DNA of 63,220 bases, the filler included. It is 15 parts of 15 records of this genome, joined end to end, with 100 filler letters (N's around TTAATTAATTAA, not from the genome) between each part and the next. Parts side by side here need not be neighbours in the genome. Positions count along the whole stretch, not along the records: positions 1 to 3,703 come from SRR15195285_9083; 14 more parts are not named here. The stretch is one strand, 5' to 3'. Every line of letters begins with the position of its first letter. Position 1 is the stretch's first letter. Below the pieces are notes generated by a model, which was not told the origin of the DNA, did not search any database, and was given only the letters and a program-made list of their open reading frames with translations. Positions 1,205 to 8,724 of the stretch are shown here, piece by piece. Made by a program: the position numbers and the translations under genes.

Positions 1205-1727
1205 GCCTGCCGCTTGACAGCTACCGGCGAAACTCGTCGTGCATGATTATGTCACTGCAGTGACGGCGTGTGCCACAACGGCCTCAGCTACACATCAATG
1301 CAGCGCCTGCGTGCAGGGAAAACAGGGCAAATTGGCCACGTTCCCGAGGCGGCTCGGAGCGAGAGCCGGCCACAATACGCTCTCACCGACCCCGCCGTGC
1401 ACGATCCGTGGAACAGCTACCCTCAATCATCCGAATAAACGGCGCTATCGCTGGGTCTGCCCACTGGCTAGCCCCCCTAGTCCCATGCGCTTGCCCGACA
1501 CGGCACGGAGCCATCATCACCATTTCCGCACATCATGCATGCGCGCGAGCGCCGGCGGCGCTCTCCCCCGCTCGTTTGACGGGCTCGGGGGTCGGGGCTC
1601 AGTGTGCATGGGCATCGACATGTTCGTGTACTAGTAGCCATCTACGGCTGCAGTGCACTGGCAGTGGCCACAGGGTAGGGTGCTAGTAGAGTGCTACGGC
1701 AGTGAAAAAGGAAGGCGGGTTGGTGAA

Positions 1728-3703
1728 ATGGAGGCTGCGGTAGAGGAGGGCGTGCCGCCGCTCGAAGCCACGCCGGCGTTGGCGGGGCCGGGACCGAGGC
1801 CGGGACCGGGGCCGCTGACGAGCCAGCGGTCGGAGCGCGAGCTTCGGGAGAGATTTTGCGAGCCCGATGCTGCACGCGAACAGGCGACCTTTCGGTCTCT
1901 GTCGGCGTCAAATTACAAGAAGAAGGTGCTCGATGAGCACTTACCCAACTCTGACTGGCGCGCGACGCTACCTGCTCTGGATGGGCTGGAAGCAGCTGGC
2001 GCACTCGGCTGGCCTAATGATCTGAACCGCTGCGCCAGCCAGGACAGAGCTCTTGGCACGTACCGTGAGCTAGTTGCGGCCCGAAAGTTTGATGAGCTTG
2101 CTGTGCTGGTGTGGACGTTTGGCGACGATCTGAACCTGCCGGAGGTGTACAGCGGCGCAAACAGCACGATTCTGTGCGACGACCCGGCGCGACTGGACGT
2201 CTACAGCGGCTTCATGTCGTCAGTCAACCGTTACATTGAGGCGCAGCCTGCGCAGCCTGCACAGGTGGAGCTCTTCCGCGGAACAACCATCGGCGCAAGC
2301 CAGCGCGCCGCGCCACAGCCTGATGGACTGGGCGCGTTCGAGCCATTCAGGCAGCCCTACTACGCGGCCGCGTCAGCGGACGAAGCCCAGGCCGCAAAGT
2401 TTGCCACAGATGGCGCCCCGATCATCAAGTACGTCGTCCCAGCTGGCTTCACCCGATGTGCGGAGCTGCCTGCGGTGCTCACCGCGTTCCCACGGGAGAG
2501 AGAGTGGTTGATCATGCCGTACACGGGGATGCGGTACAGGGGGCAGGAGCAGCGAGAGTTTCCAGCAGCGGGAGTGGATTGCGATGAGGGATTACGCGAG
2601 CGACGTCTGGTTGTGACCTTTGAGCTTGTCTTCGAGGAGGCTATGCCACCTGACGCGCCGTCGCATCTGATGGTCTGCGTGCCGCCATCAGAGCAATGCC
2701 TGTTCCGCGGTGCGTACAACGATGAAAGTGATGAGGGGCGTGACCCGGACGTACCGCTCAATGCGGTGGCTCTAGTCATCGGAGTTCAGAACTACGAGGG
2801 AGCGCGCGAGCTTAAGAACACGCTGAGCGATGCGAAGGCCATCGCGGACAAGTTTGAGGGCATGGGCTTCGACGTGATGTCGCTGACAGACAAGAACGCG
2901 GAGGGCGGCAAAGTTGACGTGGACCAGATCGAAGACGCAATCGACTCACTTGTCGAGAAAGTTGACAAGAACACGATCGCCGTCTTTGCCTTCATGGGTC
3001 ACGGAGCCGAGCAGACAGACCACAACGGTACAAGGAAGCACTACCTCATCCCCCAGGAATTTCCAGAGAAAAAGCGCCTGGCCAGGAAGGCTGTTGACCA
3101 GCACCAGATCTTGGATAAGCTCAAGGCGAAGAGTCCGCTCGTCACACTAATGATCCTGGACTGCTGCCGCGAGAAGGCAGATGTGCGCGCCGGCTACGGC
3201 GGGGGCGAAGGCCTCAAGGGGCTCGCTGGACCGGCGGGCTCGCTGGTGATGTACGCAACGGGCGAGGGCGGCTATGCCAAAGACGGCTTGGGCGGCAGTG
3301 AGCACGGCGTCTTTACGGAGGCGCTGCTGAAAGTCATGGACAGACCAGGACTCAATCTGGTCGAAATGTGCCAGACAGTCAGGGAAGAGGTCAACTCCTT
3401 GACCGCTGGCGAGCAGGTGCCAGACATTAAGCCAGGCGGTGAGGCCATCTATGAAATCCCGAGGCTGCAAAAGATCTCGCTGGTTGCCAAAACTGCAGGA
3501 CAGCAGCCAGGAAGAAGCAACACACTCGGAAGGACCAACACGTCTCAGCTTGAGGAAGCCAGGAGAGACGCCAAGAGAGAGAGAGACCTGAGACTGATGT
3601 TCGAGCGCAAGTCTGCCGAAAGCGAAAGTCTCTTACAGGCTGTCATTGAGGCTGGTCAACCTCCAAAGCTGTCGCCAGAGCCAGAGCCGGAGCCGGAGCC
3701 GGA
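1728..3703 (+). CDS. Mono-ADP-ribosyltransferase (R-S-E type) fused to a caspase-like peptidase C14 domain; 3' truncated
   Basis: ART motifs LFRGT (Arg 2277), YAAASADEAQAAKF and FPREREWLIMP (ExE 2496-2504). C14 motifs ALVIGVQNY, FMGHG (His 3000) and ILDCCR (Cys 3165). First ATG is at 1728; the ORF runs into the spacer in a PE repeat. Confidence 0.8.
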
Positions 3704-3803
3704 NNNNNNNNNNNNNNNNNNNNNNNNNNNNNNNNNNNNNNNNNNNNTTAATTAATTAANNNNNNNNNNNNNNNNNNNNNNNNNNNNNNNNNNNNNNNNN
3801 NNN
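3704..3803. other. Artificial contig spacer (44 N + TTAATTAATTAA + 44 N), one of 14
   Basis: The same linker, with stops in all frames, also starts at 7843, 11624, 16933, 21910, 26474, 31616, 34993, 41365, 44826, 48336, 51473, 55110 and 59387. Confidence 0.99.
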
Positions 3804-7482: not shown

Positions 7483-8724
7483 ACTGTCTGATGCCCGTTC
7501 CAGCAGGCGGCGCTCAGCGAGATATCACTGGGCTCCTCCGTCACGGTCCGGGCGGCGAGGCCATCGCCTGCCAGCGGAACTCCCCACCCTTCCACACCGC
7601 CCGGGGTGCCGACAACCGGATGTGCGTGCTGCGAGCCGCCGATCGCAAGCAGCCAGTGGCACTCTACAGCTGTACCATCCCCTCCGCTGGCCAGACGTCC
7701 AAGACCGTGACACGCATGTCCTGCAACCACGAGCTTCGCAGTTCGTCGGTGCCACCCACCCAGGCACGCATGCAGACACACAGGCCTACATCGACTTCAG
7801 GTACCCGGCCCAAATCGCCATTTGGCGGTTACCGAATCAGTANNNNNNNNNNNNNNNNNNNNNNNNNNNNNNNNNNNNNNNNNNNNTTAATTAATTAANN
7901 NNNNNNNNNNNNNNNNNNNNNNNNNNNNNNNNNNNNNNNNNNAAGGCTCTTTAGTTCAGCCTTTTGCATCAGGATCATTTGTGCGCGCTCGTAGTGACGC
8001 TCGGACTCCTCTCTATTTGCGTTGCGCTGACCACGCGCTGTAGCGCGAACAGCGCGCACAGGTCTAAGACAATCTCCACCTCAGGCGCTGCGCGCCTGGG
8101 CTTCCCGTTTGTGGGGGTTTCCACTTGTGCAATCGCCATGTGGGGGCCGTCCTCGACAGATGCGATGCGGCAGCGAGAGATCAAGTGGGAGAAGCTACCC
8201 GGGTACCGGTATGCCCAAGGGCAGCGCCAATCGTCTGGACGACTGGGCCCGCATTGACCTGGTGCTGCTGCAGCCCCAGCTTGGCTCAGCTTAGCGAGGG
8301 AGGAGGCCGGAGAGCCGGGGGTCGCTGGGGTTTCTATACGTGTGACTAGCCCAGCGTCTTTGTAGCGGCGAATGTGTTGAAGGATGTTGTGTGTTCTTGA
8401 TTCTTGAGTTTTTTGATATGTCATGTCATGCCATGTTGAACACATGTACCGAGAGAGAAGGCCCGACCAAAAGTCGGTCAATGGCGACTCACCAAGTCAC
8501 CATCCGTCATGCCATGTCCGCGGTCTCACCTCTAGCTATCATAGTACCGTATACATGTACAAAAAGCTCAAAATACGGCTGGGTTCATTGAACAAACATG
8601 TACTGTACCGCATGACCCGCTACACTTCCACATCTTCCACCACTTGCCAACCTTGTTGATCGACCGGCCACGTTTCACATTGCGAAGGGCACGTCGCCGA
8701 CACTCTGCCCCACATCACTTCTAG

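Follow-up and report, generated by a model that had tools for sequence, protein, structure and literature searches.

What is made by a gene that places an ADP-ribosyltransferase (ART) and a caspase-like protease in a single reading frame, and does one enzyme govern the other? The question is raised by a gene near the start of a 63,220-nucleotide stretch of DNA (the window) that joins 15 short contigs end to end. The gene, from a marine protist, is a partial coding sequence of 658 codons plus 2 bases (1728..3703, plus strand), and its product, P0001, carries an N-terminal ART half and a peptidase C14 half. The fusion is a new, conserved and unannotated domain architecture built from known domains. 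The open reading frame (ORF) is listed at 1653-3755 on the plus strand, with a homolog-supported ATG at 1728; it is stop-free to 3701, and the last real base is 3703. Support for the start comes from the closest relative, P0003, in which MAEAAEEGVPP corresponds to MEAAVEEGVPP of the target. An earlier note on this DNA had read here one uninterrupted ORF with the same two halves, and this reading holds over all 658 codons. The motifs that it named were all located: on the ART side VWTFGD (residues 128-133), YSGAN (141-145), LFRGT (182-186), YYAAAS (211-216) and REREW (256-260), and on the protease side FMGHGAE (422-428), LDCCRE (477-482) and the PE repeat (650-658).

The first half was assigned by profile and fold. 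In single-sequence searches, the ART half of P0001 matches no Pfam family even at E ≤ 10, falling below both the PF01129 and PF03496 models, and phmmer of the N-terminal half against PDB sequences gave nothing meaningful. A seven-sequence profile of the ART domain (A1) gave non-significant ART matches against PDB sequences (Vis E 0.41, Certhrax 0.53), below chance-level matches to uS7 at E 0.05. In a search of 1.84 billion representatives, the same profile retrieved 283 proteins at E ≤ 1e-3. The query and those 115 of the 150 listed A1 matches that are 150-700 residues long make up a set of 116 sequences (A2), of which 78 match PF01129 and 62 match PF03496. The profile of this set finds Vis (E 5e-15) and VIP2 (2e-7) in the PDB, together with SpvB, Certhrax, ExoT and ART2.2.

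The predicted structure agrees. An ART domain with an N-terminal helical part and a split beta-sheet core occupies residues ~40-320 (1845..2687, plus strand) by AlphaFold2 (AF2), Foldseek and VIA. With the AF2 model of residues 1-345, Foldseek returned 141 PDB chains at E ≤ 1e-3 (best E 2e-8), and the rows listed, to rank 50, are all ARTs, including CDTa, iota Ia, VIP2, Certhrax, C3, Vis, ExoS and Tre1. VIA comparison of the full-length model matched rat ART2.2 (1gxy) with Z 14.5 over residues 51-308, followed by HopU1 (Z 13.8), Vis (12.6) and C3stau2 (12.4). In that model, the block-mean predicted local distance difference test score (pLDDT) of the ART core is mostly 85-98, falling to 77-80 around residues 190-210. 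A language-model look-alike search with the ART half also returned ART clusters.

The catalytic positions were identified from family columns. The aromatic-Arg motif LFRGT (2271..2285, plus strand) supplies R184, the R of R-S-E; it aligns with the YRG of Vis and the YR of VIP2, and the column is R in 105 of 116 sequences of the A2 set. YYAAAS (2358..2375, plus strand) forms the STS-equivalent strand with A214-A215-S216; in Vis and VIP2 the aligned segments read FTSTS and YMSTS. Among the 116 sequences, 83 have A and 24 have S at position 214, and 96 have S and 15 have T at position 216. REREW (2493..2507, plus strand) provides the ExE motif, where the alignment shows EaE in Vis and EkE in VIP2; E257 is E in 104/116 and E259 in 108/116. 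F254 stands three residues ahead of E257, a spacing shared by the segments of Vis and VIP2 that align here, and the helix motif W-T...Y...N is common to the target and known ARTs. Taken in aggregate, the fold matches, R184, E257 and E259 bear out the earlier proposal of an ART of the R-S-ExE kind, with STS reading A-A-S. The domain calls of both halves are close to certain, and the first is an R-[A/S]xS-ExE mono-ADP-ribosyltransferase of the R-S-E clade (ARTC). ARTs with an ExE motif usually modify arginine. Because the Arg and ExE residues are kept, and by the ExE rule, the ART domain is predicted to be active, with arginine as its most likely acceptor.

The second half is a paracaspase-like Peptidase_C14 domain, at residues 344-584 (2757..3479, plus strand) by Pfam, phmmer, Foldseek and VIA. 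The Pfam match (PF00656, residues 347-567) has E 9.9e-30 and 104.4 bits against a cut-off of 21.4. All ten phmmer matches against PDB sequences are MALT1 (best E 3.3e-7). With the full-length model, the Foldseek rows listed are MALT1 to rank 26 (E 6e-15 to 1e-10), followed by caspases. By VIA, the closest fold is the MALT1 caspase domain (3v4o; Z 25.9, root-mean-square deviation 2.7, 215 residues), ahead of caspase-9 (Z 21.2) and metacaspase 4 (Z 20.2). The mean pLDDT of the full-length model is 84.2, and protease blocks lie mostly at ~84-98, with ~62-64 at residues 481-500.

Alignment to MALT1 places the catalytic dyad and three acidic pocket residues. MALT1 numbers were counted along the printed chain, a count that reproduces the known H415 and C464. 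Catalytic His425 in FMGHGAE (2991..3011, plus strand) corresponds to H415 in GHGYE of MALT1, and G424 and H425 are nearly invariant in the family alignment A3. LDCCRE (3156..3173, plus strand), aligned with LDMCRK of MALT1 and present in 7/7 covering A3 rows, contains catalytic Cys480 (C464) and Asp478 (D462). Asp368 in NTLSDAK (2817..2837, plus strand) stands at the position of D365 and is kept in the A3 rows; Asp519 in YAKDG (3273..3287, plus strand) stands at that of E500 and is kept in the seven covering A3 rows. We take D365, D462 and E500 to form the Arg-binding S1 pocket of MALT1. Since the His/Cys dyad is intact and acidic residues fill the three S1-pocket positions, catalytic activity and cleavage after Arg or Lys are predicted for the protease. 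The Pfam match and the alignment of H425 and C480 thus agree with the earlier description of a paracaspase-like C14 half with an intact dyad. Pfam detects no flanking death domain or Ig-like domain; the ART lies before the protease and a helix after it. Lacking the death and Ig domains of true paracaspases, the protease is best described as paracaspase-like, not as an orthologue.

The reality of the fusion was addressed through its relatives. Collinear ART-linker-C14 proteins were found in four sources besides the target: EukProt (P0003, P0012, P0013), ENA (P0004, P0005), JGI (P0007, P0008/P0168, P0115) and Logan (P0006). By tblastn, P0003, P0004, P0007 and P0013 each align across both domains of the window in one high-scoring segment pair. 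A single fragment (L001, 1,025 bases) was recovered from metagenome contigs with P0001 as query; it covers residues 388-586 at 69% identity and adds no further context. Among viral contigs, 59 pattern matches included no relative, and neither did the ten that profile A1 gave among metagenome contigs. P0012 and P0013 are labelled 'Picozoa sp. COSAG01' in EukProt, and P0003, P0009 and P0160 are labelled COSAG02 or COSAG06, a naming used for Picozoa co-assemblies in the available part of PMC8599508.

The C14 domain is found in only 6 of the 150 ART relatives listed. A maximum-likelihood tree was built from 121 ART domains: of 160 matched, 38 that do not span profile positions 110-220 were dropped, as was the near-duplicate P0166. 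P0006 and P0115, with truncated ART parts, stand outside the tree. All nine C14-fused ART domains in it form one clade, with a Shimodaira-Hasegawa-like approximate likelihood-ratio test (SH-aLRT) value of 98; a single change accounts for them, and none of 500 label shuffles was as low. The fusion is old and arose once, and its carriers make up a small family, seen in assemblies labelled Picozoa and in metagenomes from the sea. That it is real, and not an artefact of assembly, can hardly be doubted. The earlier note had placed both halves in one gene and had not recognized an annotated family; both statements stand, given the shared architecture in records from four other sources, the single ART clade, and source names without function throughout. 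No family member has a functional name among the records seen, the clusters of 20 relatives included; all read 'hypothetical protein', 'uncharacterized caspase-like protein' or a contig label.

Behind the protease, full-length members diverge. P0003 ends in a PH domain, P0007 in ankyrin repeats, and P0013 (2,695 residues) in a GBP-type GTPase plus a FYVE finger. P0004 carries three C-terminal repeats of ~50 residues with no Pfam match. In P0009, whose N-terminus, where an ART would lie, is incomplete, an EF-hand-like loop scores weakly and under the cut-off (E 0.0035). Phosphoinositides are the ligands of PH and FYVE modules, and in animals GBPs form a coat on compartments that contain pathogens. 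The presence of PH, FYVE and GBP modules in the C-termini of relatives thus suggests targeting to endomembranes. These partners and ankyrin repeats, together with the lack of a hydrophobic N-terminus, also mark P0001, as far as its sequence can tell, as a eukaryotic, cytosolic multidomain protein. As a side observation, P0003 contains a 45-residue insertion at residues ~426-470, between FMG and HGAE, that is absent from the window and from the other relatives and is probably an unspliced intron in the gene model.

By pLDDT and family alignment, a low-confidence linker of roughly 25 residues between the two enzymes (321-343; 2688..2756, plus strand) contains candidate self-cleavage sites; pLDDT is below 50 at residues 321-326 and 328-334 of the full-length model. 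Within it lie two motifs on the plus strand, LFR327-G (2700-2717) and EGR338-D (2733-2744). They were compared among 14 eukaryotic-clade sequences, ten of them ART-bearing. The pattern [FT]-R-[GA], ~20 residues ahead of the first protease strand, occurs in 12/14, including 10/10 ART-bearing members; P0159 and P0161 have FCG. R-[DQC], ~11 residues ahead of that strand, is in register in 12/14, and P0004 and P0013 have SR[EA] nearby. Bacterial relatives have neither motif, and their signal-like N-termini lead straight into the first strand. The 595-residue P0010 (ENA) is 80% identical to the target over 89 residues of linker and protease start, and its N-terminal region of ~490 residues is unrelated to that of the target, with no Pfam match. 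Because the protease and linker are shared and the N-terminus is not, the segment upstream of the linker appears to be exchangeable cargo.

Behind the protease, LGRTNTS (3525..3545, plus strand) offers a further Arg motif of the form L-x-R-[TMS], with Arg in 5/7 covering rows. It is followed by a long coiled-coil-like helix at residues 605-642 (3540..3653, plus strand; by DSSP, block-mean pLDDT ~82-90, ~62 at the end) and by a low-complexity (PE)n linker at the contig end (3675..3701, plus strand). Both had been anticipated, as a coiled coil after the C14 domain and a PE linker, and are present in the model and at residues 650-658, respectively. P0003 and P0004 likewise have PE repeats, which precede the C-terminal module in each.

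Together, these features suggest a self-release model, because conserved Arg motifs lie in a disordered linker and the adjacent protease has predicted Arg specificity. The C-terminal module would position the protein on a membrane or partner. The protease would then be activated by crowding or by helix-mediated pairing, as for MALT1 and initiator caspases; a homodimer prediction with two copies of the C14 domain plus helix (residues 340-645) scored 0.27 against a mark of 0.32, a value that counts neither for nor against dimerization. Once active, the protease might cut its own linker after the arginine of FR-G and/or GR-D, perhaps also at the L-x-R-T site behind the protease. The freed ART could ADP-ribosylate arginines of cytosolic targets while the protease cleaves substrates of its own, and the outcome would be a two-enzyme effector of cell death, immunity or drastic cell-state change. 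Self-cleavage that frees the ART fits the linker sequence. The mechanism taken together with an immune or cell-death role is plausible, if tentative. The earlier note had gone further, with a protease that releases or activates the ART and a sensor in the missing C-terminus. Neither claim was borne out: what speaks for release is the set of conserved linker Arg motifs beside a predicted Arg/Lys protease, and the PH, ankyrin, GBP plus FYVE and repeat regions of relatives look more like membrane or partner targeting than sensing.

Several observations weigh against the self-release model and the role attached to it. The first Ser of STS is Ala in the target, as in the 83 relatives counted above, and this could lower or change ART activity. 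In the ankyrin-type subgroup (P0007, P0012) the catalytic Arg is replaced by Thr (LYTGT), so that ART activity is not universally kept across the fusion family. The second linker motif also occurs in the ART-less C14 proteins P0010 and P0159-P0161, and may for this reason serve the protease module as a structural element or as part of a prodomain, and not as a site of ART release. The predicted template modelling score of the full-length model is 0.62, which leaves the relative placement of the domains uncertain. The C-terminus that would position the target is missing: tblastn of six relatives matches 1728-3689 only, with no remainder elsewhere in the window. Finally, the immune or cell-death function is a putative one, suggested by the architecture.

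These points bear on four other explanations. Both enzymes could act side by side in one uncleaved chain, at a site set by the C-terminal module, as a membrane-tethered signaling enzyme in which the linker arginines are structural or regulatory. In its favor, neither active site looks damaged, PH and FYVE modules indicate membranes with phosphoinositides, the GR[DQC] motif persists in ART-less C14 relatives, and there is precedent in MALT1, which acts largely as an uncleaved scaffold-protease. Yet this account leaves aside a disordered linker that keeps its Arg in 10/10 ART-bearing members beside a predicted Arg-specific protease, and the linker and protease of P0010, 80% identical and behind a different N-terminus, which points to swappable cargo; it is possible, though somewhat unlikely. 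The ART half could instead be a degenerate pseudo-enzyme, serving the protease as prodomain, inhibitor or binding module. Such a role would accommodate the A-A-S strand, the failure of the target's ART half to match either Pfam ART model, and the loss of the catalytic Arg in P0007 and P0012. However, R184, S216, E257 and E259 are kept in the target and in ~83-93% of the 116 relatives, the pattern expected from purifying selection on catalysis, and A-x-S is the family norm among relatives that do match PF01129. The pseudo-enzyme explanation is accordingly disfavored and improbable.

A third arrangement turns the relationship around: the ART would modify the P1 Arg on substrates or on its own linker and so block cleavage, making it a brake or timer on the protease. 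An ART of the ExE type that usually modifies Arg, a protease pocket that predicts Arg at P1, and the joint conservation of the two domains are consistent with built-in antagonism, but the family architectures showed neither an ADP-ribosyl-arginine hydrolase nor a macro domain, and the proposal is quite improbable. Last, the fusion could be an artefact, either of a chimeric contig or of contamination with a toxin gene from bacteria. The window is made of short contigs, and amplified single-cell assemblies can contain chimeras. Against this, the same junction and linker recur in independent records of four sources, the partner domains are eukaryotic, bacterial C14 relatives reach only 27-36% identity and have no such linker, and no relative was found in viral contigs, so an artefact is effectively refuted.

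Returning to self-release, the known systems that most resemble its parts help to define what is distinct here. In the model, the ART domain is closest in fold to ART2.2 and the C2/C3-like exoenzymes. It shares with the ecto-ARTs (ART2.2, PF01129; Z 14.5 to 1gxy) and with the C2/C3-like exoenzymes (PF03496; Vis, VIP2, iota Ia, CDTa and C3; Z 11-14 to toxins) both the fold and the aromatic-Arg, x-S and ExE motifs. In contrast to these enzymes, the target has no signal peptide or GPI context and is predicted to be intracellular and is fused to a protease, so that it is neither a secreted toxin nor an ecto-enzyme. The MALT1-type paracaspase (Peptidase C14B) is the best match in sequence and structure, with the dyad and the three acidic pocket positions aligned; identity, however, is 22-25%, and the partners differ (an ART and a helix, with PH, FYVE and GBP modules in the family). 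A MALT1-type paracaspase proper was ruled out, as Pfam finds Peptidase_C14 alone, without death or Ig-like domains.

The order of parts recalls the large clostridial toxins, in which an N-terminal transferase is followed by a clan-CD cysteine protease that cuts the junction and then by delivery and binding regions. The target family has the same order, which offers an analogy for release of an N-terminal enzyme. The differences are substantial, with an ART in place of a glycosyltransferase, C14 in place of C80, and an endogenous cytosolic protein in place of a toxin, and homology of layout is not implied.

Bacterial polymorphic toxins, as described in the available part of PMC3482391, carry a C-terminal toxin domain, which can be an ART, behind a caspase-like releasing peptidase. 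They likewise combine a clan-CD peptidase and an ART in one chain with a proposed self-release logic, whereas the target has its ART N-terminal to the peptidase (the reverse order), is eukaryotic, and has cytosolic targeting modules in its family. At the target, no secretion leader was found in the sequence, nor repeats or an immunity gene, and the neighbor is a Methyltransf_16 gene on the other strand. The N-terminal ART, the missing leader and the lack of an adjacent immunity gene rule out a bacterial polymorphic toxin. Protease-licensed effectors are also common in prokaryotic defense, an example in the available part of PMC12642450 being the caspase associated with EACC1. As in the target, those modules link a caspase-like protease with an effector that is latent and with sensor or targeting parts that vary; here, however, the effector is an ART and is fused instead of separately encoded. 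The NCBIfam model caspase_w_EACC1 (NF047832) was rejected at 43.7 bits against a cut-off of 140, and PADLOC returned a generic caspase model only (E 2e-9).

No description of a eukaryotic ART-C14 fusion was found in the literature, including the available parts of PMC3482391, PMC3417536, PMC7159879, PMC9503650 and PMC8195603, whose supplementary architecture tables might list one. According to the available part of PMC8195603, cell-death and immune systems across life repeatedly have ARTs and caspase-like proteases among their executioner domains. In the target, a single eukaryotic polypeptide carries both, functional genetics is nearly absent from its lineage, and the swappable membrane and GTPase heads make it possible to test whether proteolysis licenses an ADP-ribosylating effector in protists. 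If this is so, the range of proteolytic licensing would widen beyond bacteria and animals to include deep-branching eukaryotes, and the protein would offer biochemistry a compact, self-contained pair of Arg-protease and Arg-ART. If licensing fails, the conserved new architecture would still merit addition to the ART and C14 classifications. A bolder proposal, rather unlikely as a whole, is that the family represents executioners of innate immunity or cell death, of a class not described before, in protists of the Picozoa lineage. In this class, an Arg-specific protease would cut flanking Arg sites and launch an Arg-directed ART, with interchangeable heads (PH, FYVE plus GBP-type GTPase, ankyrin, lectin-like repeats) directing it to phagosomal or pathogen-containing membranes. 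Such a class would correspond, as a single protein at the protist level, to GBP-caspase platforms and to the protease-licensed effectors of bacteria.

The surroundings of the gene are limited by the assembly. The first contig (window 1-3703) holds two genes, the ART-C14 ORF on the plus strand and a Methyltransf_16 (lysine methyltransferase) ORF on the minus strand (245-1204, 319 residues, E 1.8e-14). The latter is divergent to the fusion gene and ~520 bp upstream of it, with no functional link evident. Because the contig ends at 3703, the ART-C14 gene is truncated at its 3' end for technical and not biological reasons. An artificial contig join follows at 3704..3803, consisting of an N run (3704-3747), TTAATTAATTAA (3748-3759) and further Ns to 3803. 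Fourteen joins of this N-run/TTAATTAATTAA/N-run form were seen against 0 expected, the other 13 at 7887, 11668, 16977, 21954, 26518, 31660, 35037, 41409, 44870, 48380, 51517, 55154 and 59431. As the joins are artificial, gene order across them is meaningless, and the DNA past 3803 is unrelated to the fusion gene.

Other members of the wider ART family have architectures of their own. P0021 (755 residues, from an ENA contig; E 2e-36 to A1) has a SidE-type phosphodiesterase (E 1e-20), an ART and then EF-hands, a SidE-like layout of phosphodiesterase plus mono-ADP-ribosyltransferase outside the known Legionella effectors. P0028 (4,073 residues, from ENA contigs of ~17 kb) has an N-terminal SPRY domain and a related ART at residues 3464-3673; weak, sub-threshold STAND/NB-ARC-like NTPase matches at residues ~3090-3257 hint at an NLR-like protein with an ART effector. 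Eight long proteins (P0045, P0052, P0076, P0090, P0097, P0108, P0138 and P0139; 1,442-2,377 residues) each contain 5-7 separate ART-profile matches in tandem arrays. Ubiquitin domains occur in two of the 116 ART relatives, and single members carry WWE, RWD, Vint/Hint, LRR or ankyrin domains. From the partner domains across these 116 relatives, the ART family appears to have been combined with many signaling modules in protists.

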